A stretch of DNA of 64,000 nt, taken from assembly GCF_004353825.1 (NCBI RefSeq), contig NZ_SMNA01000011.1, forward strand, positions 62,001 through 126,000, in the 5' to 3' direction. Below, in pieces: positions 38,109-60,586 of this stretch (positions within the stretch are counted from its first letter, which is position 1; each line of letters begins with the position of its first letter). The notes under the pieces are model-generated. The model ran no database searches. It was not told the DNA's origin and worked only from the letters and a program-made list of their open reading frames with translations. Both the position numbers and the translations under genes were made by a program. The stretch is from Occultella glacieicola. Its GTDB lineage: Bacteria > Actinomycetota > Actinomycetes > Actinomycetales > Beutenbergiaceae.

Positions 38109-38123
38109 GCTTACTTCGCATTC

Positions 38124-38140
38124 TGTGGAGCTAAGGGGAA
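38124..38140 (-). other. tRNA-Ala 3'-end fragment, putative att core of a genomic island
   Basis: The minus strand reads TTCCCCTTAGCTCCACA, matching the T-stem/acceptor end of actinobacterial tRNA-Ala; no 5' tRNA portion is present. Confidence 0.75.
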
Positions 38141-38417: not shown

Positions 38418-38930
38418 TCACCGGCGAGTTGAGGCTGGCTCTGGCATGTCGTCCCACGTGCGGCCCTCAAGCTGACGACCGTTCGCTTTCGGTGTCCGAC
38501 CACCCCACTGCTTGAAGAAGAACGCCACGTCTGCTTCTAGGCACTGATCGCGGAGGTCCTCCACCCAGGCCGGGTCCATGGCACGCGCGCGAGGGCCGGA
38601 CTCTCCGCCGGCGATGAGCCAGTCGATCCTGTCGAGATTCAGCGCAGGCAGCGCAGTGATGAGCGGTTCACAGGATAGGAACCGGGTAGATGCGGGGACC
38701 GCTCGGAGATGGTCGATCCTGTCGACGGCATCGTACGACTCTATCGAGACTCCCATCCAGAGGTTGTCGGGCCAGTCGAGTCTGTCCGCCACTCTCGCCA
38801 TCCGGTGGGCACGCTTCGTCAGCACCTGGTAGGTATGCTGGGGAGTCCGGCGGATGACGTCGAAGATGCCACGGATGAAGTCGATTGGGACCTTGGCATG
38901 GAACAAGTCACTCATTGAGTTCACGATGAC
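38418..38930 (-). pseudogene. 5'-truncated phage Gp37/Gp68 (DUF5131) family gene
   Basis: Motifs VNSMSDLFH, YQVLTKR, RFLSCEPL, GGESGPRAR and FFFKQWGG; the Cys-rich N-terminus is absent. Confidence 0.8.
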
Positions 38931-39290
38931 CCTGTCCTGGTGGAAGCAAGAGCGCATCACCCCGGCTGATCGACACGCTCGGTGACGAATTGCTTGAGGT
39001 GCTCCTCACCTTTGAAGTCCCTGGTGCAGTCCCACATTCGACTGCCAGACGTGCGCGAGCACCTTGCGCGGGATGGCCGAGTGATGCTGGCGGATGCGGT
39101 ACGGCGTACGTAGCCGCGGCTGGTGTTCTCCGCGCACGAGACCAGCGAGTGTCCGGGGCATTGAACGAGGGACGAACGTGGGTTGAGGTCTTGATCATCG
39201 AGCCCAAGCCCGGGTCGACTCTCGTGCGGAACTTGGCGAGACTGTCCGTCGACCGGGAGTCCATCTGCGCACACTCACCTGCCAAGAACT

Positions 39291-39314
39291 GTTGATTCCC
39301 GAATCAATCTTGAC
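39291..39314. promoter_or_regulatory. Conserved 24-bp box, copy 1
   Basis: GTTGATT-CCCGAA-TCAATCTTGAC upstream of FAD oxidoreductase 1. Confidence 0.8.
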
Positions 39315-39505
39315 AGCATGGACAACCCGCATATCTACTCGGTACATAGTTGCGACCGTGCCACCTTGCCCTTCTGTCACATCGGCGGCGCGGCCGGGCG
39401 CATTCTGCGCAAGCAGTAGCAGCGGGTCGATGTTCGGCACTTCGTTCGGAAGGTTCCACCGAAGAGCAGTCACTACTCGCTCACGAGACATCTGGGAGAA
39501 CACAC

Positions 39506-40879
39506 ATGGCCCGCTCCGAATATCGGAGTTCGCTTCACGAGCCGAGACGTCAGATCCCGCTCGACGACGAGTCCGATGTTGTCGTGTGTGGAGGTGGACC
39601 AGCCGGCGTCGCCGCCGCACTAGGTGCTGCGCGGCTCGGCGCACGCACCACACTCGTCGAGTCTCAGGGCGCGCTAGGCGGTGTCTGGACCTCGGGCGCG
39701 TTGTCCTGGATCATCGATGCCGCTCTAAAGCCGGGAATCATGGCTGAGATCGTGGAAGCGCTGGAGGCAGCTGGTGCGGACACCCCCGTCGGCTTCCCTG
39801 ACTTCTCCTACGACGTCGAGAGAATGAAACTCGTGCTCGAGAGTATGTGCACAGCCGCCGGGATACGGATGCTATTCAACACCGATGTAGTCGGCGCTCG
39901 GGTCCACGAAGGCCGACTCCAGGCAATCATCACTGAGTCGAAGAGTGGCCGCATTGCCTTCTCCGCGTCGACATTCGTCGACTGCACGGGCGACGGCGAC
40001 GTCGCTGCACTGGCCGGTTGCCAGTTCGAGATCGGCCACCCTCAGACTGGGCAACTGCAACCCATGTCTCTCATGGCACTGGTCAGCGGCATCTCCGTCG
40101 ACGAGATGCACGACGTGATTATAGCCAACGACGTGGTTCGCGCAGATGAGGAGGACTTTTCACTGGCACGCAGGCGAAAGATCTCCAAGCACAATCTTCT
40201 TCGCGAGCTCGGAAGGGCTGGATTCGACCCGAGCTATACGGGTATCAGCCTCTTCAAGGTTCACGACGATGTCTTCGCGCTGATGGCGAACCACCAGTAC
40301 GACGTTCGGCCAGACGATGTCGGCGCGATTACCTCGGCAACGATCGAAGCGCGCCGTGAGATCAATCAGGTCGTCGAGGCCCTCCGTCTGTTGGGGGGGC
40401 GCTGGTCGGGTTTGCGCCTCATCAACACTGCTGCTCAAATAGGGGTACGTGAAGGGCGGCGCATCGCTGGGCGCTACCACATCACGCGAGACGACGTCAT
40501 GCGGGGCGCTGAGCACGAGGACGCTGTGGCGCGAGTCGCCTTCGGCTTCGACGTGCATGCCCTCACACGCGCGGAAGGCGGCTACCGCAGTCCGACAATG
40601 TCTGATGTCGAGACCCGCGCGCGGCCCTACGAGATCCCGCTTCGCGCCCTCATCGCGCGGGATGTCGATGGCCTGCTGATGGCCGGACGGTGCATCTCTG
40701 GCGACTTCTGGGCTCACTCGAGCTACCGCGTCACGGGCAATGCCGTTGCCACCGGCGAGGCGGCAGGGGTCGCGGCGGCGGTAACAAACTCATTGGGATG
40801 CACGGTCGCCCAGACCCCGTGGGCCGCGATCGCCAAGGCACTGCCATACCAAGCTGAACGGATTCTCGAACAGGCCTAA
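39506..40879 (+). CDS. FAD-dependent oxidoreductase (FAD_oxidored/PF12831-like)
   Basis: Motifs VVVCGGGPAG, FVDCTGDGD, GVREGRRI, YEIPLRAL and LLMAGRCIS. Confidence 0.9.
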   Translation: MARSEYRSSLHEPRRQIPLDDESDVVVCGGGPAGVAAALGAARLGARTTLVESQGALGGVWTSGALSWIIDAALKPGIMAEIVEALEAAGADTPVGFPDFSYDVERMKLVLESMCTAAGIRMLFNTDVVGARVHEGRLQAIITESKSGRIAFSASTFVDCTGDGDVAALAGCQFEIGHPQTGQLQPMSLMALVSGISVDEMHDVIIANDVVRADEEDFSLARRRKISKHNLLRELGRAGFDPSYTGISLFKVHDDVFALMANHQYDVRPDDVGAITSATIEARREINQVVEALRLLGGRWSGLRLINTAAQIGVREGRRIAGRYHITRDDVMRGAEHEDAVARVAFGFDVHALTRAEGGYRSPTMSDVETRARPYEIPLRALIARDVDGLLMAGRCISGDFWAHSSYRVTGNAVATGEAAGVAAAVTNSLGCTVAQTPWAAIAKALPYQAERILEQA

Positions 40880-40882
40880 TCC

Positions 40883-41492
40883 GGCTCATCGCACACGAGG
40901 GTGTAGCGGTGGTGCCCGGGTAAGGGCCGAGGTCCCAGGATGGAAATTCTCACACTGCCCATCCGGAAGACCTCGACGTGGACGACGCTACCTTCTGGAC
41001 TCCTGACCTGACGAGGCTCTGCCGCTTGGACGAGCTTGGCCTCGTGGCTGTCGGGCAGGCACTGGAGCCCGATCGGGGAGTGCTGGCTTGCAGGGTGGTC
41101 GAGCCCGATGGGTGGTGCCGCCGCTGCGGGTGCGAAGGCGTGCCGCGGGGAACTGTGTGCGCGGCTTGCGCATGAGCCGTTTGGCTGGCGTCCCACGGTC
41201 TGTTGGTCCGGATGCATCGCTAACGGTGCTGCGGGTGTGGGCACGTGTGGCGTCAGGACTCCACCACAGCGGCGCCGCCGCGGGCGAAGCTGTCCCGGGC
41301 GGCAGTGCGCTGGGCCTTGGTCGCCCTGGTCGGCCACCTGACAGTCGCCACGATCGCCGAAGCCCTCGCGGTGTCGTGGCACACCGCTAACGACGCCGTC
41401 CTGGCCGGGGCCGTCGGGTCCTGATCGACGACCCAACCCGGTTCGATGGCGTCGCCGTGATCGGAGTCGAGGAGCACGTGTCGCGCCACACG
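40883..41492 (+). mobile_element. Degenerate, truncated ISL3-family (IS1096-like) element
   Basis: End sequence GGCTCATCGCAC; frameshifted transposase pieces PDLTRLCRLDELGL, WCRRCGCEG, AHEPFGWRP, VSWHTANDAV and DDPTRFDGVAVIGVEEH. Confidence 0.85.
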
Positions 41493-41696
41493 TCACTTCA
41501 CGTCAGACGCCCAGCACGAGCATGCTTCACCATCGGCAACAACGGCGGTGGGTGTGTTTGCGATGGGCGGCCAAGCACCCCAGATCGGGACTCGCGAGCC
41601 GACCTGCCCACTGCCGGAGAGCTGACCCGCGACACTGCCCGTGCGGGTGTTCTGTGTTCCGAAGTCTTCGACCCAGGCAATCGCGAACGGCGATGA

Positions 41697-41751
41697 GTTG
41701 ATTGCCCGATCAATCTTGACTCAACTGGATCGGAACAGTTGACTCAGCTGG
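41697..41751. promoter_or_regulatory. Conserved 24-bp box, copy 2, plus a downstream direct repeat
   Basis: GTTGATT-GCCCGA-TCAATCTTGAC (41697-41720); TTGACTCA(A/G)CTGG at 41716 and 41739. Confidence 0.8.
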
Positions 41752-41868
41752 TCGAGCCGTCCGGTTCCCTGCCGTAGGTTGGGCCTCACATCCTGGCGAA
41801 ACGGCACACCACAGCAGGATTTCAGCACGTCACCATGGCGTTGAAGCCACGAGAAGGAGTAGCAGTCA

Positions 41869-43833
41869 ATGGCGAAGCATCTACTCTTCGGCACCTCATA
41901 CAGTCGGCGGACTGCACTGAAGGTGGCCGCAGCGGCGTCCGCCGGTGTCGCGTCCGGGCCACAGGCGCAAGCCTGGACTCACGGGTCCGGTCCAAGCAGG
42001 ACCGACGACTCCCATCCGCGTCTCCTCGCGAGGCCCAGCGACTTCGACGCAGTGGCCTCTCGCGTCGTCACGGACGAGGTATCCCAGGGATGGTTCAGCA
42101 CGCTGGAGGAGCTCGGGACGGAGTTGTTGGCGGTACCCACGCCGACCTTCCCGAACGGCGCAAGCCTGCTCAACACCGCCAGAACTGCCGTCAATCGCAT
42201 CTACACACTCGCCCTGCTCGAGCAACTCGCCGCCGACCCCTCCTACGCACAGCGCGCGCGAGCTGAGATCGCGGCAATCGCGGAGTTTCCTCAATGGAGC
42301 CGAACGAACCCACCGAAACTCGCCGACGACTTCCTCTCGGTTGCGGAGATGACCCACGCGATGGCAATCGGGTACGACTGGCTGTTCCACACCATGAGCG
42401 ACGACGAGCGTGCCGATGCCCGCGAAGCCATCATTGAAAAGGGGCTGCGCACAGCCCTGAACGCCTACCGGGAAGATTCGATCTACACCGGTTCACCAAA
42501 CAACGTCGGGATCGTCACCAACGCTGGATTCGGTGTGGGGGCACTCGCCATCGAGCCAGAGTCGCCCTTGATCGCACGGGACATCCTGCGCAGGAGCCTG
42601 CACTGCATCCGACCAGCCGTCCAGCAGCTCAGCCCCGACGGGAGCAGCCCCGAGGGCGGCTATTGGGGATATGTCATCAGGTACCTCGGCATCTACCTCG
42701 CAGCACTGGAGTCCTCTGGCGTCCGCGATAACGGGATCTCACAAACCGTCGGGCTGTCCGAAACAGGAAACTATGCGATCTACCTGACCGGTCCCGCGGG
42801 GCAGTTCTTCAACTACTCGGACTCCGATCCAACGTCGCAGCAGCCTCCGGAACTGCTGTGGCTCTCTGAGCGGTACTCGAATCCCGTCTACACATGGTGG
42901 GGCAGCCGGAGCCGGTCGACGAGCACCCTCTACCTGCCCCGCTACTTGTTGTGGTACGACCCCAGCAAGGACGTCGGTCCGCTCGAGTCCGACCTGCCAC
43001 TCGACATCCATTTCGCCAGCGTGGAGGTTGCAACCTTCCGCAGCGCGTGGGAGGACCCGGACGCCCTGTTCGCCGGCTTCAAGGCGGGCGACAACGCCAG
43101 CAGCCACGGTGACCTCGATCAGGGCACCTTCGTCATCGATGCGAATGGGCGCAGGTGGGCGACAGAACTAGGCAAGGACAGTTACGGCCTTTCCGGCTAC
43201 TTCGACTACGGCGGTGGCAGGCGCTGGAACTACTATCGCAAACGCGCCGAGGGCCAGAACACCCTGGTCATCAACCCGACCTCGGCACCCGACCAACTCC
43301 CCAACGCCTCCTGCCACATCTCCCGCTACGAGTCATCCGCCGCCGGCGGATACGCGATCGCGGACCTCACCGGTGCAGTCCCCGGAGATGCGGTCACGTC
43401 CTGGCAGCGCGGCGTCGCCATGGTCGACCAGCGTCGGCGCACCCTGGTGCAGGACGAGGTGACTCCGAACGGTCACATCACGGCGTGGTGGTTCATGCAC
43501 ACGACCGCACAGGTAGCGGTCTCCGAGGATGGCCGGTCCGCATCGTTGACCATGGCGGATGAGGACGGCGGCAACCCCGCCACTCTCCTGGTCCAGATGG
43601 TGTCCGCTCCCCCGGACTCGGCATTCACGGTTCGTGCTGCAACACCACTTCCGACGTCTCCCACCCCCCAGGGACAATCGGCGAACGCAGGCGTCTCGAA
43701 ACTCACGATCGAACTGGCGGCTGATGACGCGTTCACGCTGGCGGTGCTCTTCAGCCCGATCACCGAGCCGGCCAACCCGGATTTGACGACTCCCAGCGTC
43801 GTCGCGCTGCATGATTGGTCGACGGACATGTAA
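41869..43833 (+). CDS. Tat-secreted heparinase II/III-like polysaccharide lyase
   Basis: SRRTALK Tat motif; HPRLL, AIGYDWL, PEGGYWGY, HGDLDQGTF and YYRKRAEGQNTL. Confidence 0.8.
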   Translation: MAKHLLFGTSYSRRTALKVAAAASAGVASGPQAQAWTHGSGPSRTDDSHPRLLARPSDFDAVASRVVTDEVSQGWFSTLEELGTELLAVPTPTFPNGASLLNTARTAVNRIYTLALLEQLAADPSYAQRARAEIAAIAEFPQWSRTNPPKLADDFLSVAEMTHAMAIGYDWLFHTMSDDERADAREAIIEKGLRTALNAYREDSIYTGSPNNVGIVTNAGFGVGALAIEPESPLIARDILRRSLHCIRPAVQQLSPDGSSPEGGYWGYVIRYLGIYLAALESSGVRDNGISQTVGLSETGNYAIYLTGPAGQFFNYSDSDPTSQQPPELLWLSERYSNPVYTWWGSRSRSTSTLYLPRYLLWYDPSKDVGPLESDLPLDIHFASVEVATFRSAWEDPDALFAGFKAGDNASSHGDLDQGTFVIDANGRRWATELGKDSYGLSGYFDYGGGRRWNYYRKRAEGQNTLVINPTSAPDQLPNASCHISRYESSAAGGYAIADLTGAVPGDAVTSWQRGVAMVDQRRRTLVQDEVTPNGHITAWWFMHTTAQVAVSEDGRSASLTMADEDGGNPATLLVQMVSAPPDSAFTVRAATPLPTSPTPQGQSANAGVSKLTIELAADDAFTLAVLFSPITEPANPDLTTPSVVALHDWSTDM

Positions 43834-44058
43834 CGGGCTCTCATTCTGGCTCGCAGGTGCGTCGCCGGGCAGCTCACCGAGGTCACCACGGGGCGACCGA
43901 ACTGCCGCCCAGCACCTACACAATTCTGCTCCGACAGAAGTCCCTCGGAACTCACCGCAGCGATCAGCACCAACCGCGGTCGGCAAGCGTATGCCGGTCA
44001 TCGGTCCGTGTTGACGCGCCCTCCTAGACCGCTCCGCACACAAGATTCGGGAGTACCC

Positions 44059-45684
44059 ATGCAGCACCCATCCTTCGACCGACGCACTTTCCTCCTGGGA
44101 GCGGGCGGAGCCCTCACTCTCGCAGCCTTGCCAAGTTGCTCCACCGGCGGCACTGGTTCCGAAGCTCCGACGACTGACAACAGTGGCGTCGAGCTACCCT
44201 CCTACATCCCCTCGACGGGTGTTAAGCCGGACCTTCAAGGTACGCCGGAGGGCGTGCCGGACGGGTTCTTCAACTACCCCGCCGATCAGCATCGTTCCGT
44301 CACCGAAACACCGGGGGCGGGTGAGTCGATCAGCGGGATGGCGATGATCTCCACGGCGGTCCCGCCGACCCGATCCGAGAACGCCTACTGGCGAGAGCTG
44401 GAGGACCGGCTCGGTGTATCGCTCGACCTGATGATGACCCCGTCGGCCGATTACGATCAGAAGTTGGCCACCGTCGTTGCAGGCGGCGACATCCCTGACA
44501 TGGTTCAGATTCGGGATGCCCCGGATCTTCCTCGACTGCTCGAGTCGCAGTTCCAAGACCTGTCCGAGTACCTCTCCGGCGATGCGATCCAGGACTACCC
44601 GAACCTGGCCACCTTGCCGCCTCTGACGTGGCGGGGGGCCATCTACAACGGTGGCATCTACGGCATCCCGAATCCACGGCAGGCGATCGGGAGTTACGTG
44701 TTCGTACGCCAGGACATCTTCGACTCGCTGGGGCTGTCGACCGAACCCGAGAACCTTGATGAGTTCCTCGAGACCTGTCGCGCGCTCACCAACGCCCAGG
44801 AGAACAGGTGGGCGATGGGCGATTCCGGATCGGCGGCTGCGCTCGTGATCATGGGCATGTTGTCCGGAGTGCCGAACGAATGGCGCAACGAGAACGGCTC
44901 GCTCACCCATAAGTACGAGACGGACGAGTTCGCGCGTTCGGTCGAATGGGTTACGCAGCTCTGGCAGGACGGCTTGATGCACCCGGATACGTTCGCGAGC
45001 TCCGACACGAGTGGTCAGTGGTTCCATGCGGGCCGAACCGGGATCTGGCTGACGGGCAACGGACACTGGAACAGCGCATTGAAGAACCATCCGACGTCAG
45101 AGCTCGGACTGATGACCCTGCCGAACTGGGATGGTGGCGGCCTCGCACCGTGGCGGCTCGGGTCAGGCTTCTTCTCGATCAATGCCTTCAAGAAGGCCGA
45201 ACCCGAGCGAATCAAGTTGCTGCTCCGGGTCTGCAACTGGCTCGCTGCTCCGTTCGGCAGTGAGGAGAACTACCTCCGCGCGTATGGGCTGGACGGCGTT
45301 CATCACACCGTCGACGCCGATGGGAATCCGACTCTCACCGAGTTGGGTCAGGCAGAGCTGCGGCTCCCGGTCAGTTATCTGGCGGCGCCGCCGACTCCGC
45401 TGTACACACCCGGGCGGCCCGACGACACGAGGGTCCAGCATGCCTATCAGTCCGAGGTGATTCCCGTGGGCGAGCCCAACCCGGTGATCGGTCTCTACTC
45501 GGCCACGGACGCCGACGACGGGGTCAGGCTGAAGCAGACCTTCGACGACGCCGTCAACGACATCATCACTGGCCGGGCGACCATCTCCACACTCACCGAG
45601 TCCGTGGACGCGTGGAAGCGCGATGGAGGCGACGCGATGAGGGCCGAGTACGAGGAACAACTCGCCGCCTACCCGATCGACTGA
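44059..45684 (+). CDS. Carbohydrate ABC transporter substrate-binding lipoprotein (Tat)
   Basis: DRRTFLL..LPSC signal; motifs YDQKLATVVAGGDIPD and NGGIYGIP. Confidence 0.9.
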   Translation: MQHPSFDRRTFLLGAGGALTLAALPSCSTGGTGSEAPTTDNSGVELPSYIPSTGVKPDLQGTPEGVPDGFFNYPADQHRSVTETPGAGESISGMAMISTAVPPTRSENAYWRELEDRLGVSLDLMMTPSADYDQKLATVVAGGDIPDMVQIRDAPDLPRLLESQFQDLSEYLSGDAIQDYPNLATLPPLTWRGAIYNGGIYGIPNPRQAIGSYVFVRQDIFDSLGLSTEPENLDEFLETCRALTNAQENRWAMGDSGSAAALVIMGMLSGVPNEWRNENGSLTHKYETDEFARSVEWVTQLWQDGLMHPDTFASSDTSGQWFHAGRTGIWLTGNGHWNSALKNHPTSELGLMTLPNWDGGGLAPWRLGSGFFSINAFKKAEPERIKLLLRVCNWLAAPFGSEENYLRAYGLDGVHHTVDADGNPTLTELGQAELRLPVSYLAAPPTPLYTPGRPDDTRVQHAYQSEVIPVGEPNPVIGLYSATDADDGVRLKQTFDDAVNDIITGRATISTLTESVDAWKRDGGDAMRAEYEEQLAAYPID

Positions 45685-45786
45685 CCAGGGAGGCAATGCG
45701 ATGAGACGCCCAGTGATGGGACACACTGACCTCGGCATCGAGATCTCGCAACCGAGGACGACGATACGGCCAACGCGGGGGTCACG

Positions 45787-46782
45787 ATGGTGATCGTCAA
45801 AACCGCTCCGAACGCGGGTGGACGAGAGCAGATGACGAGTTCCCGTGGCCCCAGTCCTTCAGAGCAACGCCGTGGACGGCGCCGTGGTCGCTGGCGGCGG
45901 GACAGGTTACTGCTGTTGTTGGGTCTGCCGGGGCTCGCGGTCGTAGTGCTGTTCAACTACGTTCCGCTTCTGGGGAATGTCATTGCCTTCAAGGACTATG
46001 TGCCGTATGTCGGGATTCTCGAGTCTCCCTGGGTGGGCTGGCAGAACTTCCAAGTCATATTCAATGGGGATCCGGAGTTTCTGACGGCGCTGTCGAACAC
46101 GTTGATCATCTCGCTCGTGCAGATTGCATTCGTGTTTCCGGTACCCATCGCGCTCGCACTGCTGCTGAACAGTCTGGTCAGTGAACGAATCAAGCGCGTG
46201 GTGCAGTCGGTTCTGTACCTGCCCCACTTCATGTCGTGGGTGGTCGTCGTCGCGATCTTCCAGCACATGCTCGGAAACGCTGGACTGTTGAACAGCTGGC
46301 TACGCTCGCAAGAATTGGTCACACTCCCGATTATCGGCAACCCGGACCTGTTCATCGGGCTCATCACGTCGCAGGTGATCTGGAAGGATGCCGGTTGGGG
46401 CACGATCATCTTCCTGGCGGCGTTGTCCAACATCGACGTGCAACTGTATGAGGCGGCCGCGGTCGACGGCGCCAGTAGGTTAAGGCAGCTGTGGCACGTC
46501 ACCCTGCCGGGAATCCGGAGTGTGATCTTCTTGATGCTGATCCTCAAGCTGGGTGACGTACTGACCGTCGGTTTCGAGCAGATCCTGCTGCAGCAGGGTC
46601 CGGTCGGACTGCATGCGTCAGAAGTGCTGGATACCTACGTGTATCGGAACGGCGTCCTGAGCGGCGACTGGGGCGTGGCCGCGGCCGTCGGCCTGGTGAA
46701 GGGCCTCGTCGGAGTGATGCTGGTTCTTGGCGCCAACAGGCTGGCCCACGTGTTCGGCGAACGAGGGGTCTACTCACGATGA
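45787..46782 (+). CDS. Carbohydrate ABC permease (LplB-like)
   Basis: Motifs SPWVGWQNF, YLPHFMSWV and LYEAAAVDGA; start uncertain. Confidence 0.92.
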   Translation: MVIVKTAPNAGGREQMTSSRGPSPSEQRRGRRRGRWRRDRLLLLLGLPGLAVVVLFNYVPLLGNVIAFKDYVPYVGILESPWVGWQNFQVIFNGDPEFLTALSNTLIISLVQIAFVFPVPIALALLLNSLVSERIKRVVQSVLYLPHFMSWVVVVAIFQHMLGNAGLLNSWLRSQELVTLPIIGNPDLFIGLITSQVIWKDAGWGTIIFLAALSNIDVQLYEAAAVDGASRLRQLWHVTLPGIRSVIFLMLILKLGDVLTVGFEQILLQQGPVGLHASEVLDTYVYRNGVLSGDWGVAAAVGLVKGLVGVMLVLGANRLAHVFGERGVYSR

Positions 46783-47699
46783 GAGCCAAGATCATTCCCG
46801 GGCGACCGTCGACGGCGCGAAGCACAACTGGTGCGATGGCCCCGCCAAGTCCGCTGATGCGTGGCTCCAAGGGACTCCTCCTGATGCTGTGCTGCGCCGT
46901 GGTCATCGTCCCATTCCTTTCGGTGGTCTCCACCAGCCTGGCAAGTCCGGCGGAGGTCACGGCCGCCGGCGGGTACGTGCTCTGGCCATCGCAGCCAAGC
47001 CTGGATGCCTACCGAGCGATCTTTGCCGGAGGGGTGGTCACTCGTGCCTTGCTGGTATCGGTCGGGATCACAGTGGTGGGCACCACACTCTCGCTGGCCT
47101 GCACGACCCTCTTGGCCTACTCCCTCAGCCGCCCGGGCTCGTTCGGTAGCAAACCCGTGCTGATGATCGTGCTGTTCACGCTGCTGTTCAGCCCGGGCAT
47201 GATCCCCATGTACCTGCTGATCAAGCAGCTTGGGTTGCTCGACTCCTACTGGTCGCTCATTTTGCCTGGCCTCATCAGCGGATTCCTCGTGATCATCATG
47301 CGCGGGTTCTTCCTTGACCTCCCCGGGGAACTGTTCGACGCAGCGCGTATCGACGGCGCCAATGAGGTGCAGACCTTGCTGCGTATCGTGGTGCCGCTGT
47401 CGAAGGCGGTGATGGCCGTGGTCGGCCTATTTATGGCTGTGGCCTATTGGAACGCCTTCTTCAGCGCATTGCTGTACATCAACGACACAGACAAGTGGCC
47501 GCTACAGCTCGTGCTGCGAAGTTACGTCGTGAACGATACCCCGGTCGGCGCAGAGGGCTTCGTTGGGGAGGTCGCACCTCCCCAACAATCCCTGCAGATG
47601 GCGATCCTCGTCGTCAGCCTGATCCCGATCGTCCTCGTCTACCCGTTCCTGCAACGCCATTTTGCCAAGGGCATGCTCATCGGCGCCGTCAAGGGGTGA
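46779..47699 (+). CDS. Carbohydrate ABC permease (LplC-like)
   Basis: Motifs ELFDAARIDGA and YPFLQRHFAKGMLIGAVKG. Confidence 0.92.
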   Translation: MRAKIIPGRPSTARSTTGAMAPPSPLMRGSKGLLLMLCCAVVIVPFLSVVSTSLASPAEVTAAGGYVLWPSQPSLDAYRAIFAGGVVTRALLVSVGITVVGTTLSLACTTLLAYSLSRPGSFGSKPVLMIVLFTLLFSPGMIPMYLLIKQLGLLDSYWSLILPGLISGFLVIIMRGFFLDLPGELFDAARIDGANEVQTLLRIVVPLSKAVMAVVGLFMAVAYWNAFFSALLYINDTDKWPLQLVLRSYVVNDTPVGAEGFVGEVAPPQQSLQMAILVVSLIPIVLVYPFLQRHFAKGMLIGAVKG

Positions 47700-47861
47700 G
47701 CGTCAAAACCGCGACGTGCAATCGGACCGGCGCCGCGGCAAGCCTTCCTGGGCGAACGCCGGTGATGAGCCCGTCTGGTGCCGCCCTGGTCCGGGCGACG
47801 GCCCCGATGTGTCCCAGGGCGTGCACTCACACACCGCAACCATCCCGATGGAGGTCCCACG

Positions 47862-50633
47862 TTGGAGTCAGACTCGAAGAACGGTCGGGAGGTCGCGCAG
47901 CATCCGCGGCTCTTCGGCAGCGACCTTTCTCATGTTCAGGAGCTGATCCTCGACGACGATCGTTCGCGCGGCTGGTACCGCAACGTCGAGCAGCAAGCCG
48001 AACAGCTCCTGTCCACGCCTGCTTGTGAGTACCTGATTCCCGATGGCAAGCGTCTACTGGACACGAGCAGGGAGGTCCTCCGGCGAACCTATTTGCTAGC
48101 GCTGGCACACCATGTCTCGCGTCGAAAGGAATTCGCCGACCGACTCTGGCTGGAATTGCTGACCGCGTCGCGATTCTCCAACTGGAACCCAAGCCACTTC
48201 CTCGACGTGGCGGAGATGGCTCACGCTTTTGCAGTCGGATACGACTGGCTGTACGAAGAGTGGGACGCCACCCAACGAGAGCACCTCGAGCACGCAATTG
48301 TGATGCACGCTCTGCGCCCTGGACTCCAGGCGTACAGGGAAGCTCATCGATGGACGGTCCGCACTAGCAATTGGAATCTTGTGTGCAACGCCGGCCTCCT
48401 GATGGCGGCTCTGGCCATCGCCGACGTGCACGGTAATCTCGCACAGGAGGTGATCGACGCGGCGATGGCGTCCATGGCCCGGGCGGTCGCTGTGTACGGC
48501 CCGGACGGCGCCTACCCCGAAGGCCTGGGCTACTGGAGCTACGGCACCCAGTACCTCGTCTTGGGCCTCGCCGCGTTCACGACTGCGACGGGCATGCCTG
48601 AGCAGCTCAGTTCCGTGCCAGGTCTCGACCGCACGGCGAGATTCGCCGTCCACGTCACTGGTCCCCTGGGGTTGGCGTTCAACTACTACGACGGCGCGGC
48701 GCGCGTCACGGTGCCGCCGGCTGGTTTCTGGCTCGCGCGCCGCTTCGACGATGGCTTGGCGGCCGGGTTGGCAGCCCAAGGCGCCGATGAGCTGCTCACG
48801 GACTGGGATCAGCTTCCGACCAGCCTGCTGTGGTACCGGCCGAGGTCAGAGGTCGATCCCGCAACAGCAGGCGAGCCACTCGACTCCTACTTCCGGGCAT
48901 CGGAGGTCGTCACCATGCGCAGCGCGTGGCAGCAGCGAACTGCGGTGTGGCTGGCAGGCAAGGCTGGCGACAACGCAACCCCGCACGGCGACCTAGACCT
49001 GGGTACCTTCGTACTCGATGCGCTGGGCACCCGTTGGCTGCACGACCTCGGGTGGGACAACTACAGCCTGCCGGGGTACTTCGACTTCACGGGAGGTCAG
49101 CGCTGGACCTACTACCGCAAGCGCACCGAGGGACACAACACGCTGGTGGCCAACCCAGACGCCACCGGGGGCCAGTCGTGCTCGACGACTCTTGGCGAGG
49201 CGGCCGGGACGGGAACCGGGGCTGTGATCGCACATCAGAGCAACGCTTCGGAGGCCTACGTCGTGCTCGACTTGACCAGTGCCGATCCCGCGTACCGCTC
49301 CTGGAAGCGTGGATGGCGCCTGTTCGACTTCCGCAGGCAGGTGCTCCTGCAGGACGAAGTCACCCTGCACGAAGCCGGCGAGGTCTGGTCGTTCCTTCAC
49401 ACGTCGGCGCAGATCGACATTGCCGACGACGGGCGAGGCGCCGTGCTCCGCGACGGGCCCAAGCGCCTAATCGTGCGACTGTCGGATCAGACTCCGGGTC
49501 TACTCGTGGAAATGGAAGCCACCCCGATGTGGACCTCGCCCGCCCCTCGGGGACAGAGCACCAACACGGCGATACGGAAACTCGCGCTACGGGTCTCAGT
49601 CGAGGGTCCGGTCACCCTCGTCGTCCAATTGTCACCAGTAACCGAGCACGAGCCAGTACCCCCACCGACCTCGGTGATGCCGCTTGCGAACTGGACTGTG
49701 AGCACCGAACCCGTCGCGCAACTGGAGCGCCTCGCCATCGACGGAGAAGACGTTCCCGGGTTCTCACCAGAAGTTTGGAGCTACGAGATCCCCGCATCGC
49801 AGATCGGACAAATCCAGGCGACTGCTCCCGCCGGCAGCACCGTCGACCAAATCCGCGAGCCCGGAGGCGATGTCGTGCTCGACGTCCACGCTCGAGGTGC
49901 CCGGACCGGCAGTTACCGACTCCGACGACTCCTCGATGACTCTCCACAGGCGATGACCTCGCCGATCTTCGCGAGAAGTGACGACGGGAACGTCGCCGCC
50001 AACGCTTTCGACGGGACGGCGGACTCGTTCTGGCGACCCGGTACCGCGGGCCCCGAGTGGATCGGATGCGATCTCGGTGTCGAGACCGGGTTGGGTGCCG
50101 TCCTGATCGCTTGGCACGAGGGCGCGCGCGCTTCAGTCCAGTTCGATGTCGAACTGGCCGGAGCGGAGGGGACGTGGCAGCAAGTCTGGACCGGATCGTC
50201 CTCTGGTACAACAACAGCGGCTCAACGGGTGACCTGGCCACCGCGGAAGGCTCGTCACGTACGCATCGTGCGGCGAGATGACGGGCCCGCCTCGCTGTTC
50301 GCCGTCACCTCGATGGAGCTGCCTGGGCGCCTCCCGCGTCAACCGTCGCAGCTGCGAAGCACTGACATCCACCTTTTGGTGCCGGCCTTGCGGGCGGGCT
50401 CCGCCCAACAAGCTTCCGTTTCGTTGAGATCGCCGCAGGGAGGAATCGTCCCAAGTTCTGACTACACCGTCGAACTCATCTCTTCCGATTCCTCGGTTCT
50501 CCAGATCGCTGGTGACCGCCTGGCCCCAATCTCGCCGGGCACCGTCGTCGTGACCGCCGTCGTCCGAACCAAGGAGCGACTCCTGCTTCATCACAGCGTG
50601 AATGTGCAGGTGCAACCGCCACAGCCTGCCTGA
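47862..50633 (+). CDS. Heparinase II/III-like lyase with F5/8 (discoidin) and Ig-like domains; no evident signal peptide
   Basis: TTG start after GGAGG; motifs HFLDVAEM, SNWNLVCN, YPEGLGYWSY and HGDLDLGTF; discoidin segment AFDG..SFW..EWI. Confidence 0.8.
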   Translation: MESDSKNGREVAQHPRLFGSDLSHVQELILDDDRSRGWYRNVEQQAEQLLSTPACEYLIPDGKRLLDTSREVLRRTYLLALAHHVSRRKEFADRLWLELLTASRFSNWNPSHFLDVAEMAHAFAVGYDWLYEEWDATQREHLEHAIVMHALRPGLQAYREAHRWTVRTSNWNLVCNAGLLMAALAIADVHGNLAQEVIDAAMASMARAVAVYGPDGAYPEGLGYWSYGTQYLVLGLAAFTTATGMPEQLSSVPGLDRTARFAVHVTGPLGLAFNYYDGAARVTVPPAGFWLARRFDDGLAAGLAAQGADELLTDWDQLPTSLLWYRPRSEVDPATAGEPLDSYFRASEVVTMRSAWQQRTAVWLAGKAGDNATPHGDLDLGTFVLDALGTRWLHDLGWDNYSLPGYFDFTGGQRWTYYRKRTEGHNTLVANPDATGGQSCSTTLGEAAGTGTGAVIAHQSNASEAYVVLDLTSADPAYRSWKRGWRLFDFRRQVLLQDEVTLHEAGEVWSFLHTSAQIDIADDGRGAVLRDGPKRLIVRLSDQTPGLLVEMEATPMWTSPAPRGQSTNTAIRKLALRVSVEGPVTLVVQLSPVTEHEPVPPPTSVMPLANWTVSTEPVAQLERLAIDGEDVPGFSPEVWSYEIPASQIGQIQATAPAGSTVDQIREPGGDVVLDVHARGARTGSYRLRRLLDDSPQAMTSPIFARSDDGNVAANAFDGTADSFWRPGTAGPEWIGCDLGVETGLGAVLIAWHEGARASVQFDVELAGAEGTWQQVWTGSSSGTTTAAQRVTWPPRKARHVRIVRRDDGPASLFAVTSMELPGRLPRQPSQLRSTDIHLLVPALRAGSAQQASVSLRSPQGGIVPSSDYTVELISSDSSVLQIAGDRLAPISPGTVVVTAVVRTKERLLLHHSVNVQVQPPQPA

Positions 50634-50677
50634 TGCCCTGAGCCAGGGGGTGTCTGGACCTCAAGTTGTTGAGCGCT

Positions 50678-51871
50678 TCAGTCCTGGGTCTGCGGCCACC
50701 CACGTTCGACCGCCCGATGCGGTTCGCGCAATCGTGAGATGGTGCCCATCTCATATTCGTCGATCGCGTGCGCAATCCACCCTGCGGACCGTGCGATACC
50801 AAACATGACCTCGCTGGCACCGTGCTCCATTGATGACGAGTCGGCAATCATGCCGAGCGCCAGGTACACGTTCGGGGGCGGGAGCCGGCGACTCTTGAGG
50901 AGCGCCAGCATCTCGAACGATCGCTGAAGTCTGGCGTCTTCTGTTGCGAGCGGCTTGAGCAGCTTCAGTAGGTGGCTGGCCCTAGCGTCCCCTTGCGGGT
51001 GCTGTGGGTGCCCGAATCCAGGTAGCCGTCCTTCGTCCCGGAGTCGTGCACTCAACACGAACATGGTCCCGTGTGTGTCTCCGAAGGTGCTCAGCATTGC
51101 TTCAACGGCAGTCGCGGACGCACCGAGTACGGCACTGCTGCCCACTCCTAGCCCTGCGGCTAGAACACCGTAGAGGTCGGCGTGTGCCGACGCTGCGATC
51201 TGTGCGGCGTACGTGGACGGCGACAACCCGTGATCCGCGAGCAACACAAGGGCGGCGTTCAGGACACGGACCTGCTCCTCGTTGGGCGTGATGGTCGAAA
51301 GGCGTGACCAGAGCATGGATGCCAAATCAACATCGATCGGTTCCGATCTCTGAGGCATTGCCTCCACCAGAGTCCGCAAGAGCGGTCCCGCAGCGTGCGC
51401 AGCCGATTGGATACTGGAGTCGGAGCGAAACGGATCCGCGGCAGTGACGGCGGCAAGCATGACACGGAGCCGGTCAGAGGAGATGGTTTCCTGCGGCAAC
51501 GACGTACCCACTCGCCGGGCCACGGCCACGGATTCCGCGTTGGCCACCCATCCGACGCTCTCCTCCCACCGCCCGGTCCAGAGGAAGTGCGCCACCGACT
51601 CGAAGGGTTGCTCAACGAGTTCAGACACAGGTCTGGCCCGGTAGTGGAGCATGTCGTCCTTCAACGTGCTCAAACGGGAGGTCTTGCCAAACTCGTTGAG
51701 CGAGGGCCGACGGCCTTCCTGCAGCAATCGGTCCACGTCCTCAGGGCGAAAGTAACTGATCCTGCCATCCCGCTGCCGTGGCAATGCTCCACGGCTGACA
51801 TAGGCGTAGATCGTCTCGCGCTTGACTCCCAGCCGTGCCGCGGCCTGTGTCGCTGTCAGCAAGTCATTCAT
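50678..51871 (-). CDS. HTH (excisionase-like)-citrate synthase-fold fusion, probable regulator/pseudoenzyme
   Basis: N-terminal LTATQAAARLGVKRETIYAYVSRG; CS motifs ADHGLSPST, PGFGH and ARSAGWIAH are present; LHGGA is replaced by VLGAS and PNVD by PNVY. Confidence 0.88.
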   Translation of the reverse strand: MNDLLTATQAAARLGVKRETIYAYVSRGALPRQRDGRISYFRPEDVDRLLQEGRRPSLNEFGKTSRLSTLKDDMLHYRARPVSELVEQPFESVAHFLWTGRWEESVGWVANAESVAVARRVGTSLPQETISSDRLRVMLAAVTAADPFRSDSSIQSAAHAAGPLLRTLVEAMPQRSEPIDVDLASMLWSRLSTITPNEEQVRVLNAALVLLADHGLSPSTYAAQIAASAHADLYGVLAAGLGVGSSAVLGASATAVEAMLSTFGDTHGTMFVLSARLRDEGRLPGFGHPQHPQGDARASHLLKLLKPLATEDARLQRSFEMLALLKSRRLPPPNVYLALGMIADSSSMEHGASEVMFGIARSAGWIAHAIDEYEMGTISRLREPHRAVERGWPQTQD

Positions 51872-51914
51872 CTGGGTCTCCTCTGACGTCCCGCACCCAA
51901 GATAGCGGACCATA

Positions 51915-51938
51915 GTTGATTCATGACTCAATCTTGAC
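51915..51938. promoter_or_regulatory. Conserved 24-bp box, copy 3
   Basis: GTTGATT-CATGAC-TCAATCTTGAC between the HTH-CS gene and the divergent FAD oxidoreductase 2. Confidence 0.82.
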
Positions 51939-51997: not shown

Positions 51998-53395
51998 GTG
52001 GCCGAGCAGTTGGCAACGAGTCATCACGACATCGTGATCGTCGGAGGCGGAGCAGCAGGAGTCGCCGCTGCGATCGCAGCGCGCCGCAGCGGCCTCGACA
52101 CCGTGCTAATCGAGGCAGGACCGTTCTTCGGCGGCGAGCTCGTCAGCGGATTGCCCATCGACGGCTGTCTCAACGCCCGGGGTGAGTGGATCGTTGGAGG
52201 CGTCGCACGACAGCTGTTCGACGCCGTCGAGTCGGCCGGGAGCTTTGCCCGGGCGATGTCCGACTACCGCCAGATGTGGGCGGTGTGCGTCGATCCGGAG
52301 ATGCTCAAGATGAGCATCATCGAGGCATTGGCCGAAGCCAGGGTCAACCCACGGCTGTACCTCACCAGCCAGGATGTGGTGGTACGCCGCAACCGCGTCG
52401 AGGGAATCATCGCGGTAGGAAAGGGGAAGCGCTACCTCATCACCGGAGACGTCTTCATCGACTGCACCGGCGACGGACAGTTGGCTGTCTCTGCGGGTGC
52501 GCCCTTCGAATTCGGCGGCCGAGCGGGCGAGCTGCAGCCGGTGTCACTGACCTACCGACTCACGAACGTCGACTACAGCAAGTACCTGGACTGGGTGGCC
52601 GCCGAACCGGACCTCTTCCTCCTCGCAGAGAACCCCGCCCTGGGCTACGCCGGCAAGCGCGAGGCAGCACGTGCGGCGCGAGATGGCGGGTTTCCATTCG
52701 TCGCCCTCGATGCGAACGGAACTGTCCTTGGGGACGCGATCGAGCGTGGCGCGATGGACCCCTGCACCGCGTTGTACTTGTGGCCGACATCGCCAGCGCG
52801 CAACGAAGTTGGCATGAACACCACGCGATTGTCAGGGGTCGATGGCACCAACCCCCAAGAACTGAGCGAATCCCTCTCCACCCTCACCGCCCAGATCAAC
52901 CGCTGCATCGATTTCTGCCAGAAGAACATTCCGGGCTTTGCGGATGCGCGCCTTGCCGGAATCGCACCCCGAGTTGGGGTCAGGGAGACCAGGCGCGTGG
53001 TCGGCGAGTACGTCCTCACTGAGGAAGACGTGGTCGAGGGCAAGAAGTCTGATCGCGGCGTCGCCAAGGGCGGTCACCACGTCGACATCCATGGCGAAGG
53101 CACCGCACAAGTTCGACGGGCAGTGAATGATGGCCGCTCGTACGACATTCCCTACGAGGCACTCGTGCCCAAGAATATCAAGAACGTGCTGATGGCCGGC
53201 CGGTGCCTCTCCTCTACTAGGGAGGCCAACGGCTCGGCTCGCGTCATGGGCACCTGCATGGCGACTGGAGAGGCCGTCGGCGTGGCCGCAGCAATGATGG
53301 TCGAGGCTGGTCTGCGTGATGTCCGCGAAGTCGATGTCGCGACGCTGCGCTCTCGACTCACGGCAGACGGCGCCGTCGTCGACGGCACCAACTGA
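51998..53395 (+). CDS. FAD-dependent oxidoreductase (FAD_oxidored/PF12831-like)
   Basis: RBS AAGGAG plus GTG; motifs IVIVGGGAAG, FIDCTGDG, GVRETRR, YDIPYEAL and LMAGRCLS. Confidence 0.9.
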   Translation: MAEQLATSHHDIVIVGGGAAGVAAAIAARRSGLDTVLIEAGPFFGGELVSGLPIDGCLNARGEWIVGGVARQLFDAVESAGSFARAMSDYRQMWAVCVDPEMLKMSIIEALAEARVNPRLYLTSQDVVVRRNRVEGIIAVGKGKRYLITGDVFIDCTGDGQLAVSAGAPFEFGGRAGELQPVSLTYRLTNVDYSKYLDWVAAEPDLFLLAENPALGYAGKREAARAARDGGFPFVALDANGTVLGDAIERGAMDPCTALYLWPTSPARNEVGMNTTRLSGVDGTNPQELSESLSTLTAQINRCIDFCQKNIPGFADARLAGIAPRVGVRETRRVVGEYVLTEEDVVEGKKSDRGVAKGGHHVDIHGEGTAQVRRAVNDGRSYDIPYEALVPKNIKNVLMAGRCLSSTREANGSARVMGTCMATGEAVGVAAAMMVEAGLRDVREVDVATLRSRLTADGAVVDGTN

Positions 53396-53568: not shown

Positions 53569-54585
53569 ATGCCGGCTGTGTTGTTTCCTGGCGACGCAGT
53601 GACGTTGGCCGTCGAGATGGAACCGCCAGAGCCGACACCCGGTGAAGTGCTCATCCGGCTCACCAAGTCCGGTGTGTGTGGCACGGATGTCCACTACTGG
53701 CGCGAGACTCCACAACAGCGCGGGCACAGACGCGACGTCGTGCCGGGACACGAGGCCGTCGGCGTGGTGGATTGCGTGGGACCGGGTGTCGTGGCATTCG
53801 GACCGGGTGATCGCGTCGTCGTCGGCATGCTCCATATCGGCTGCGGGCGATGCCGAGACTGTGCGTCCGGAAACTACTCCCATTGTCTCGACAAGCAGGT
53901 CTTGGGACGGACCCTGCATGGCTCGTACGGGCAGTACGTGTGCGTGCCCGACCGAGCGGTGTACCGACTGCCGGACGCCCTGACGGACAGCGTCGCGGTC
54001 ATGACCGCGTGCAACCTGTCCACCGCTCACTCCGCGGTGCGCAAGGCGGCCTTGTCTGCTGGCGGCAAGGTCGCGATCTTCGGACTGGGAGGGGTGGGGT
54101 TGTGCGCGCTGATGGCCGCCGCCACACACGGCGTCGAAGTCACCGCCATCGATCCCATCGCCGGTCGACGGGACATGGCAGCTTCGTTGGGCGCGACTCT
54201 CGTGAGCGACCCAGAAGACTTCCACGCCTCGCTGGCCGCCGGTCACACACGTGGCTACGACGCCACGATCGAGTGCAGTGGGCACCCAGGTGCACAAGCA
54301 GATTCGATTCGGGCACTGGTCCCCGGAGGGCGGTCCGTGGTCGTCGGCGGTGGAGGTCGGTTCACGTTCCGAGCCGAAGAACTGCTGGCACGTGAGTTGA
54401 CCCTGGTCGGCTCCTCGGTGTGCCCCGCCGATCTGTTCTACGACGTGCTGGACTTCGCTGCCACACACCATCGAGAACTTGAGGGGCTACTCGGGCCGAC
54501 GTTCGGCATCACCGACGCAGAGCAAGCCTTGCGACACTCTGCCGACGGGGGCATAGGCAAGCCGATCTTCGACTGGCCGCACTGA
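53569..54585 (+). CDS. Zn-dependent (MDR) alcohol/polyol dehydrogenase
   Basis: Motifs GVCGTDVH, PGHEAVG, CGRCRDC..C and IFGLGGVG. Confidence 0.92.
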   Translation: MPAVLFPGDAVTLAVEMEPPEPTPGEVLIRLTKSGVCGTDVHYWRETPQQRGHRRDVVPGHEAVGVVDCVGPGVVAFGPGDRVVVGMLHIGCGRCRDCASGNYSHCLDKQVLGRTLHGSYGQYVCVPDRAVYRLPDALTDSVAVMTACNLSTAHSAVRKAALSAGGKVAIFGLGGVGLCALMAAATHGVEVTAIDPIAGRRDMAASLGATLVSDPEDFHASLAAGHTRGYDATIECSGHPGAQADSIRALVPGGRSVVVGGGGRFTFRAEELLARELTLVGSSVCPADLFYDVLDFAATHHRELEGLLGPTFGITDAEQALRHSADGGIGKPIFDWPH

Positions 54586-56693: not shown

Positions 56694-56854
56694 GAGGTCC
56701 TTCTGGTTCACTTTGCGCAGCGGGTAGATGAAGGCTCCCGCGAAGCGAGAGGGACCTGCTCAAGACTCCGTCACTATGAGTCCGCCTCCCGCTGTCGCCG
56801 TACATCTAGGCGGTCTCAATCTGCTCGGCGGATTTGGGACGGCGGAACGCGCTG

Positions 56855-59404: not shown

Positions 59405-59413
59405 GTGGAGTAC

Positions 59414-59425
59414 TGTAGCGCTACA
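59414..59425. promoter_or_regulatory. LacI-type operator 1
   Basis: Perfect palindrome TGTAGCGCTACA between the SDR and lacI genes. Confidence 0.82.
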
Positions 59426-59473
59426 AGCGACCTGTGAAGCGCAGATCCGAGAATCGTGGGGTAAAACTGTCCG

Positions 59474-60499
59474 ATGACCACGCTGCAAGACGTAGCGGCG
59501 CACGCCGGAGTCTCACCGATGACAGTTTCCAACGTGGTCAACGGTCGCCCCGGGGTCGCTGAGTCCACGAGGCTGCTGGTTGACGCTTCCATTCGGCACC
59601 TCGGGTACAAGCCGAACCTCTCCGCGCGACGCCTGGCCAAGGGCCGCACCGGCATGCTGACTCTCAGCATCCCCGAGGTGGAGATCCCGTATTTCGCGGA
59701 GATCTCCAGTGCGATGCTGCGGGCCGCTCTTGAGCGCTCGATGGACATCCTCATCAACCAGAGCGACTGGGACCGCGATCGCGAGCTGGATCTGATCCAC
59801 GGCTCGATGAGCCTGCTGACCGATGGAATCCTGCTCTACCCCTCGACCCTGACGCAATCCGATCTGAACGGTGCCCGTCCTGGCGTCCCGCTGGTGCTGT
59901 TCGGGGGTTCGGAGGTGTTCACCAACGTCGATCATGTGGTGATCGACAACGTCGCGGCGGCTCAGGAGGCCACCGAGCACCTGGTCTCGCTCGGGCATCG
60001 GCGGATAGCCTTGATCGGTCCCCACCTGGAGCCGAATAGCCGCAAGCCGAACGGGCGTCTCGCGGGTTACGCCCGGGCACTAGAGGTAGCACGGATCAAG
60101 CGCAGCCAGGAGCTACTGGTCAACGTGCCCACCTATCACCGGGTCGACGGCTACCGCGCGATGCAGCAACTGTTCGAACTCCCGCAGCCGCCCACCGCGG
60201 TGTTCTGTCTCAGCGACCTGCTGGCGGTTGGCGCGCTGCACGCGGCCTACGACCGCGGCGTCGCGGTTCCCGGGGAGCTATCGATCATGGGGTTCGACGA
60301 CGTCGAGGAGTCGCGGTACTCGAACCCGGCGCTCACCACGATCAAACCGGACAAGCTTGCGATCGCCAGGCACGCGCTCGACCTCATCTCCGGGCCAGGC
60401 GAGGGTTCCGAACAGAACGGGCCCCGCACCGTGATCACCAACCACGAGTTGGTTATCCGGGCAAGCACCGCGGCGCCGGGCCGCACTGCCGCCCACTGA
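59474..60499 (+). CDS. LacI-family transcriptional regulator
   Basis: Motifs TLQDVAAHAGVSPMTVSNVVN, GYKPN, GFDD and LTTI. Confidence 0.95.
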   Translation: MTTLQDVAAHAGVSPMTVSNVVNGRPGVAESTRLLVDASIRHLGYKPNLSARRLAKGRTGMLTLSIPEVEIPYFAEISSAMLRAALERSMDILINQSDWDRDRELDLIHGSMSLLTDGILLYPSTLTQSDLNGARPGVPLVLFGGSEVFTNVDHVVIDNVAAAQEATEHLVSLGHRRIALIGPHLEPNSRKPNGRLAGYARALEVARIKRSQELLVNVPTYHRVDGYRAMQQLFELPQPPTAVFCLSDLLAVGALHAAYDRGVAVPGELSIMGFDDVEESRYSNPALTTIKPDKLAIARHALDLISGPGEGSEQNGPRTVITNHELVIRASTAAPGRTAAH

Positions 60500-60574: not shown

Positions 60575-60586
60575 TGTAGCGCTACA
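60575..60586. promoter_or_regulatory. LacI-type operator 2
   Basis: Identical TGTAGCGCTACA upstream of the third lyase. Confidence 0.82.

Follow-up and report, generated by a model that had tools for sequence, protein, structure and literature searches.

A conserved box at four promoters of an Occultella glacieicola genomic island is probably the operator of a predicted citrate-synthase-fold pseudoenzyme regulator

We analyzed a 64,000-nt stretch of the Occultella glacieicola genome (hereafter the window; it lies on contig C2 of the 5.34-Mb genome G000), in which a 24-bp box of the form GTTGATT-N6-TCAATCTTGAC stands before genes for polysaccharide cleavage, uptake, and flavin-dependent catabolism. 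Beside these genes is one for a protein, P0001, that joins a helix-turn-helix (HTH) head to a citrate-synthase (CS) body. On the combined evidence of sequence comparison, phylogeny, and residue conservation, the box is likely to be the operator of this HTH-CS protein, which would be a pseudoenzyme regulator re-wired to glycan genes, and that P0001 binds the box directly is very likely.

When the window was scanned, the box was found three times with no mismatch, each time on the plus strand, at 39291, 41697, and 51915; the first-pass annotation, made from the letters of this stretch, had reported the same three copies with all 18 fixed positions identical. No further match at up to three mismatches is present in the window. 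The pattern has a chance expectation of 0.01 copies on average, and none of 100 shuffles reached three. A fourth copy with one mismatch (box 4) lies 7 kb beyond the window end on the minus strand (G000:C2:132990-133013) and is followed after 175 nt by a fourth lyase gene; boxes 1 to 4 are the only sites at up to two mismatches in the whole genome. All four fall within one 35-kb island that carries the HTH-CS gene. The first three copies are intergenic, as had been noted, relative to the likely start codons ATG 39509, ATG 41869, and GTG 51998, which they precede by 194, 148, and 59 nt; the start given by the open reading frame (ORF) caller for oxidoreductase 1, TTG 39350, is an upstream extension of the likely ATG 39509.

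Comparison of the four genome sites with two sites from a metagenome contig, L016, indicates what has been kept. Identity is 82-100% at the fixed positions, against 0-50% in the N6 spacer and 15-53% in the 40-nt flanks. As spacers and flanks are near background while the fixed positions are retained, this pattern is the signature of a protein-binding site and not of a duplicated promoter segment; chance and duplicated promoter blocks were both rejected as origins of the box, given the shuffle counts and the diverged spacers and flanks. The conserved unit can be written TTGA-N8-TCAA-NN-TTGA. The core had earlier been read as a TTGA-N8-TCAA dyad, and that N8 unit is indeed present, but the part that is invariant across the family is the TCAA-NN-TTGA dyad instead.

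The box was also found to follow the HTH-CS gene between genomes, and not another regulator, a possibility that the first-pass annotation had named as fatal to its proposal. The congener G002 encodes an HTH-CS protein 97% identical to P0001 and has all four boxes, box 1 being retained with changes in its spacer and at one fixed position; in the nearest named record (L001, Occultella aeris), the regulator is likewise 97% identical. Two congeners without the island HTH-CS gene, G001 and G003, have no box at up to one mismatch, though each has four PL35-like lyases, and the full pattern is present in none of 400 other genomes of the class. A scan of genome contigs with P0001 returned one locus, and a metagenome scan returned 80 loci, mostly ordinary citrate synthases, with a single true orthologue, on L016 (of the 80, L016 and L018 alone were used for the upstream-motif counts below). 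The L016 protein is 68% identical to P0001 and is accompanied by the same cargo types in a different gene order. One box with one mismatch lies in the divergent spacer of this regulator, before an orthologue of oxidoreductase 1 (72%) and a binding protein (52%), and a second, also with one mismatch, lies past the regulator 3' end, before a lyase (59-63%). Scanning the genome and the orthologue neighborhoods for the motif, as had been proposed, thus yielded a fourth genome site, two L016 sites, and the core at 36 of 44 HTH-CS genes. When a matrix was trained solely on 14 sites from other genomes, selected for their N8 form, the four island boxes came out on top with 31-39 bits, against 20.4 bits for the highest-scoring site not at an HTH-CS locus.

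The promoter divergent from the regulator is itself conserved (TTGAC-N5-xTGATCA ... TTCGCT) between L016:8416-9864 and window 51998-53395. As it serves oxidoreductase 1 in L016 and oxidoreductase 2 in the window, the cargo appears to have been swapped behind it.

P0001 fits the HTH-CS fusion architecture of an N-terminal HTH_17 domain with a TxYAYVSRG segment followed by a citrate-synthase body. It matches PF00285 at E 1e-45 and HTH_17 at E 1e-10, with the TIGR01764 excisionase domain above cut-off, and its structural model (predicted local distance difference test, pLDDT, 90.8) has citrate and methylcitrate synthases as top Foldseek hits, at template-modeling (TM) scores of 0.6-0.7. Both acetyl-CoA-activating residues of the enzymes are absent: GPLHGGA, which holds the catalytic His of the GPxHGGA motif, aligns with SAVLGAS (Leu249), and PNVD, which holds the catalytic Asp, aligns with PNVY (Tyr336). 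Aligned enzyme residues are kept at His214, His288, Arg297, and Arg361, and Arg380 is present in four of five clade members; in the enzymes, these His and Arg residues (DH, GFGH, DxR, AR) bind oxaloacetate or citrate. P0001 scores below the curated cut-off for all 20 citrate-synthase and citryl-CoA-lyase models that it matched (best, PRK12350, 105.9 versus 332). Judged by its residues, P0001 has a catalytically dead citrate-synthase body and is no member of the active citrate synthases.

This loss is a property of a small clade. Across the family, the catalytic His and the catalytic Asp are each kept in 147 of 162 HTH-CS proteins, and in the clade P0001-P0005 all five members have lost both (His to Leu or Val, Asp to Tyr). 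A quick tree places the clade on a long branch with full support (Shimodaira-Hasegawa-like approximate likelihood ratio test, SH-aLRT, 100), apart from a second HTH-CS protein resident in the same genome on contig C18, and in a profile search of 1.84 billion representatives the clade accounts for only two 50% clusters. Both catalytic residues are also missing, with other replacements, from 14 of 148 other representatives. The HTH segment TxYAYVSRG is nearly constant, its fixed positions being 96-99% invariant among the 162 proteins, which fits an invariant DNA core.

Such a core was identified across 44 HTH-CS genes from Actinomycetota, Deinococcota, and Pseudomonadota, a set that includes both G000 genes and from which one locus without an N-terminal match was dropped. 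TCAA-NN-TTGA occurs upstream of 36 of them (280 nt around the start), downstream of one (the second L016 box), and inside none; shuffles gave a mean of 0.09 and a maximum of 1 for the upstream core. The spacer upstream of the core varies and is mostly N5 (15 cases) or N8 (13). The divergent partner is usually a citrate synthase gene: of 25 partners scanned in other family members, 21 encode this enzyme and four an HMGL-like one. The count excludes eight of 33 ORFs whose frame or orientation had been miscalled, and it takes in one annotated plasmid gene. The island HTH-CS gene has neither partner and faces a PF12831 oxidoreductase instead, both in the window and in L016. The island box is not specific to this island but is a spacing variant of a signal that is found across the family and usually targets a citrate synthase gene, and the ancestral family probably controls the adjacent citrate synthase gene.

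Several further observations were made within the family. The resident HTH-CS gene (L004:7811-10375, G000:C18) is divergent from a PRK12350 citrate synthase and is present in all three congeners; its spacer reads TTGA-N5-TCAA-NN-TTGA-N11-TCAA. HMGL-like (DRE-TIM) partners are found at L098, L109, L112, and L124, and by N-terminal sequence also at L096, L102, and L108, pointing to a non-homologous acetyl-CoA condensing enzyme as the controlled target. Cupin and dioxygenase partners are found as well. Three betaproteobacterial HTH-CS proteins without the catalytic residues (L126, L127, and L128) adjoin cupin, aldolase, flavin oxidoreductase, or ring-hydroxylating dioxygenase genes and may be further re-wired dead branches.

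The position of the box relative to promoter elements bears on the sign of control. Of 36 family sites, 27 have a NANNNT hexamer 16-18 nt beyond the last TTGAnn, against a background of 8.6%, so the last TTGA can be taken as a true -35 of the target promoter, with the box on and just upstream of it. In all six promoters of the island subfamily, the A of the -10 is missing and a T[CT]NNNT hexamer is found at 17-18 nt (background of TNNNNT, 5.5%), which lends modest support to activator dependence. On balance, we lean slightly toward P0001 activating rather than repressing its cargo promoters. A plain inducer-released repressor of all four promoters, which would still be P0001 acting through the box, is a less favored but substantial possibility: overlap with the -35 is the classic position of a repressor, and most family target promoters (the same 27 of 36) have a good -10, although the absence of the -11 A from all six subfamily promoters suggests that these need help to fire. 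A MerR-type mechanism is not matched, as the box ends on the -35 and the -10-like hexamers follow at 17-18 nt, whereas true MerR activators bind inside a -35/-10 spacer of 19-20 nt.

For the regulator's own gene, box 3 covers the promoter region, which suggests autorepression, and we consider it probable that P0001 autorepresses. A TATGGT hexamer had been noted as a -10-like element on the strand of this gene, abutting the third copy. The abutment stands, but the role as a -10 is uncertain, as only 11 nt, and not 17, separate the hexamer from the back-to-back TTGAGT; the resembling hexamer in L016 lies 4 nt further out than in the window.

A number of points count against assigning the box to P0001 or narrow what follows from that assignment. 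Among the orthologous loci compared, glycan cargo appears at only one independent locus, L016, the G002 protein being 97% identical. The 44 HTH-CS genes are not independent, with eight from one genus and five close paralogues, and the core is missing from the 280 nt of eight of them (L008, L099, L105, L107, L111, L122, L127, and L128); L111 does contain a full N8 site at another place in the locus. The HTH alone gave no match when compared with solved structures. None of the six subfamily sites is followed by a TANNNT -10, and their promoters are accordingly termed candidates here. The PF12831 oxidoreductase likewise returned only Rossmann/FAD-binding-motif hits among solved structures (FAD, flavin adenine dinucleotide) and no close solved relative, and with the match limited to the Rossmann motif the ligand is a guess. 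Finally, the resident C18 protein, with an HTH segment nearly identical to that of P0001, could read the same half-sites.

This last point is the basis of the alternative that survives best, in which the C18 paralogue binds the island boxes, alone or by cross-talk, with the island protein reduced to a passenger or modulator. Both kinds of site share TCAA-NN-TTGA, and the C18 spacer reaches 23-24 bits with the island matrix. We nevertheless regard it as unlikely, since the C18-type proteins have N5 in their own sites in all seven same-family relatives (L009-L015), against N8 at the island sites, P0001 belongs to a separate clade, and box 3 and its L016 counterpart lie in the promoter of the island HTH-CS gene itself. 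Less probable still is that the box is promoter sequence only, either back-to-back -35 hexamers or an alternative sigma factor site with no dedicated factor. It is true that the final TTGAC is a -35, that an opposite-strand TTGAT has a TANNNT 17 nt away in several family members, and that the subfamily -10 regions are atypical. Yet box 2 (after an insertion sequence remnant) and the second L016 box (after the regulator 3' end) keep the full dyad without a divergent partner, the third half-site is no promoter element, and TCAA-NN-TTGA occurs only nine times in G000, five of them at HTH-CS loci. A generic -35 artifact was rejected on the placement of the core at HTH-CS genes and the absence of the full pattern from the 400 genomes.

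It is very improbable that the box belongs to the island LacI-family protein (59474-60499) or to a sugar regulator encoded elsewhere. In favor of this reading, the LacI gene shares the island and is 99% identical in G002, PL35-like lyases of G003 adjoin LacI-type genes, and Microbacterium xanthan loci use LacI-type regulators, one such locus having an FAD-dependent oxidoreductase with LacI- and TetR-type regulators (bioRxiv 10.64898/2026.04.20.719765). Against it, a different palindrome, TGTAGCGCTACA, is found beside the LacI gene and ahead of lyase 3, and L016 has boxes with no LacI hit across 21 kb, on which grounds LacI was rejected as owner.

With the box assigned to P0001, a mechanism can be proposed. 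P0001 would be a one-component transcription regulator, its citrate-synthase body serving dimerization and metabolite sensing, and its HTH heads would read TTGA/TCAA half-sites arranged as TTGA-N8-TCAA-NN-TTGA and overlapping the -35 of four promoters. These would drive oxidoreductase 1, the lyase-ABC-lyase operon (ABC, ATP-binding cassette), oxidoreductase 2 together with the divergent regulator gene, and the fourth lyase beyond the window. In the course of losing the catalytic His and Asp but not the residues holding a 2-oxo-acid or carboxylate, the clade would have moved from citrate metabolism to uronate-polysaccharide catabolism. As 4-deoxy-5-keto-uronates and 2-keto-3-deoxygluconate (KDG) share the HOOC-CO-CH2 head of oxaloacetate, they are the leading ligand candidates, and it is conceivable, by this analogy, that the ligand is such a 2-oxo-acid end product of the lyases. 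The widest form of the proposal is speculative and, taken as a whole, rather doubtful: HTH-CS fusions would be undescribed multi-phylum metabolite-sensing regulators with a near-universal TCAA-NN-TTGA core, and the pocket of this clade, converted through the loss of both acetyl-CoA-activating residues, a receptor for a 2-keto-3-deoxy sugar acid set free by PL35 lyases, with the protein activating a four-promoter regulon including flavoenzymes of a uronate pathway.

By its predicted features, P0001 works like an enzyme-fold one-component regulator and stands outside both the active citrate synthases and the true MerR activators. MocR/GabR, ROK/NagC, and SorC/DeoR regulators also fuse an HTH to an enzyme-derived, often inactive, metabolite-binding body and control neighboring catabolic genes; their sensor fold is other than citrate synthase, and their head other than the MerR-like/excisionase type HTH_17. 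BldC/Xis/MerR-like HTH_17 proteins have the same Pfam head type and a site of several short half-sites, but are small stand-alone proteins. Closest in architecture are pairs such as Streptomyces coelicolor sco5831 (citA3) and sco5832 (citA4), with a TTGA/TCAA site between the divergent genes; we take sco5831 to be an HTH-CS protein. In the accessible text of PMC12323332 and PMC9739823, the two are putative citrate synthases, and in that of PMC12323332 MtrA bound a probe in their spacer, while both are treated as enzymes with no mention of an HTH. The island protein differs in having no catalytic His or Asp, four dispersed sites, and glycan cargo. Caulobacter crescentus CitB and CitC are adjacent citrate-synthase-like genes, and CitC failed to complement Escherichia coli gltA, as expected of a non-enzyme; the main text of PMC7083601 contains neither helix-turn-helix nor HTH, and assigns a regulatory role to CitA, without a DNA site.

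No HTH-citrate-synthase regulator or box site was found described in full-text literature, a search that mostly leaves subscription journals outside its coverage and does not include supplements. The view that a citrate-synthase-fold regulator of a glycan locus is uncharacterized is in keeping with this result, and a gene switch with a DNA-binding head and a dead citrate-synthase body appears not to have been described before. What is new here is the putative four-site regulon and the predicted catalytically dead clade re-wired to polysaccharide catabolism. HTH-CS family proteins carry citrate synthase annotation in public databases and are counted as such in Streptomyces studies; if they are regulators, these annotations are mistaken, as are the metabolic models derived from them, and each protein can be given a predicted operator. 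The island is a good test locus, as four dispersed copies of one site set the operator apart from divergent-promoter sequence, and as P0001, dead by its residues, leaves no confusion between enzyme and regulator roles. Shared control would also tie two flavoenzymes of the very large PF12831 family to PL35 lyases, hinting at their substrates, and, if true, a Krebs-cycle enzyme fold would have been re-tuned into a sugar-acid sensor.

Table 1. Features of the island in window coordinates, unless a contig is named
Feature	Position	Strand	Remarks
Left island edge (att), direct 17-bp repeat matching the 3' end of tRNA-Ala(GGC)	38123..38139		blastn 17/17 at C2:100123-100139
Box 1, GTTGATTCCCGAATCAATCTTGAC	39291..39314	+	Upstream of FAD oxidoreductase 1; terminal TTGAC(A) is the -35 of its promoter
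FAD-dependent oxidoreductase 1, PF12831	39509..40879	+	72% identical to boxed gene in L016
ISL3-family transposase remnant, broken, outside the regulon	40882..41421	+	HTH_Tnp_ISL3, E 2.6e-7; between oxidoreductase 1 and box 2
Box 2	41697..41720	+	Precedes lyase-ABC-lyase operon; identical in G002
Lyase 1, PL35-like polysaccharide lyase	41869..43833	+	Twin-arginine-like N-terminus; GAGase II catalytic Asn/Tyr/His positions retained; 8khv E 1e-64
ABC solute-binding protein	44008..45684	+	Weak matches to AlgQ1 and other sugar-binding proteins
ABC permease	45787..46782	+	Family match
ABC permease	46779..47699	+	Family match
Lyase 2, PL35-like with F5/8 type C (CBM32-like) domain	47778..50633	+	Matches PL35 GAGases
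HTH-CS regulator P0001, 397 aa	50678..51871	-	HTH_17/excisionase-type head (4-53), citrate-synthase fold (65-381)
TATGGT, possible -10 of HTH-CS gene	51909..51914	-	Directly abuts box 3; TATCGT in L001
Box 3	51915..51938	+	Divergent spacer of HTH-CS/FAD oxidoreductase 2; overlaps both promoters; orthologous site in L016
Extra half-site pair TTGATCAA	51944..51951		Within -35/-10 spacer; TGATCA kept in L016
FAD-dependent oxidoreductase 2, PF12831	51998..53395	+	29% identical to oxidoreductase 1
Zn-dependent dehydrogenase	53569..54585	+	Possible co-transcription with oxidoreductase 2, from orientation only
TGTAGCGCTACA perfect palindrome, candidate LacI operator	59414..59425		Between SDR (short-chain dehydrogenase/reductase) and LacI genes
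LacI-family regulator	59474..60499	+	99% identical in G002
Second TGTAGCGCTACA	60575..60586		Ahead of the probable start of lyase 3, a gene without an HTH-CS box
Island right end	G000:C2:~135230		Beside tyrosine integrase (Phage_integrase)

The island that carries these genes (Table 1) is low in GC and integrated at tRNA-Ala(GGC), its edges being the 17-bp repeat and the tRNA with the adjacent tyrosine integrase; at the left att, GC falls from about 0.72 to 0.62. A DUF5131 (Gp37/Gp68-like) gene lies at this edge on the minus strand (38418-38960). At the position of the ISL3 remnant, G002 has a different sequence, which includes a lone TCAA-NN-TTGA core.

The lyases connect the island to the PL35 GAGases, as lyases 1 and 2 match these enzymes (GAGase II, 8KHV; GAGase VII, 8KHW) at E 1e-64 and 2e-71, and the lyase behind box 4 is 60% identical to lyase 1. 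Lyase 1 aligns the catalytic Asn, Tyr, and His, with Asn where alginate-active members have His (at an inferred numbering offset of 22), the triad named in PMC12088678. By homology to GAGase II and VII and by this triad, lyase 1 is a predicted lyase of the PL35 family. The known GAGase loci differ from this one, which lies in an actinobacterial island and combines the lyases with ABC uptake and PF12831 flavoenzymes. In G000, no GH88 protein scored above cut-off and the KduI-family matches are all outside the island, so the downstream route does not appear to be the textbook glycosaminoglycan (GAG) pathway. G000 has 11 PF12831 oxidoreductase genes and seven PL35-like lyase genes, and the congeners four to seven such lyases; the box directly precedes just 2 of the 11 and 2 of the 7 in G000. 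No Rfam match at the gathering threshold was found in 37500-64000, and an RNA element in the leaders was thus not seen.

LacI operators are typically short, perfect palindromes centered on CG/GC and close to a LacI gene, a form that the box does not have and that TGTAGCGCTACA at 59414 and 60575 does. These two are the only exact copies in G000, and both are retained in G002. As other promoters carry this separate palindrome of the LacI protein, the reach of the box is limited to a part of the island, and TGTAGCGCTACA likely defines a second regulon within it. The proposal that the HTH-CS box controls cleavage, uptake, and flavin catabolism is therefore extended by the fourth site and cut back elsewhere, as lyase 3, the SDR/cyclase/GH51 block, and a second ABC set are found behind LacI-type sites. 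That block comprises SDR, cyclase/arylformamidase-like, DUF6772, and GH51-like genes on the minus strand (55206-59503) behind the LacI palindrome and is a candidate for an uncharacterized sugar-acid or amino-sugar pathway. One further copy of TGTAGCGCTACA lies elsewhere in each of G001, G002, and G003.

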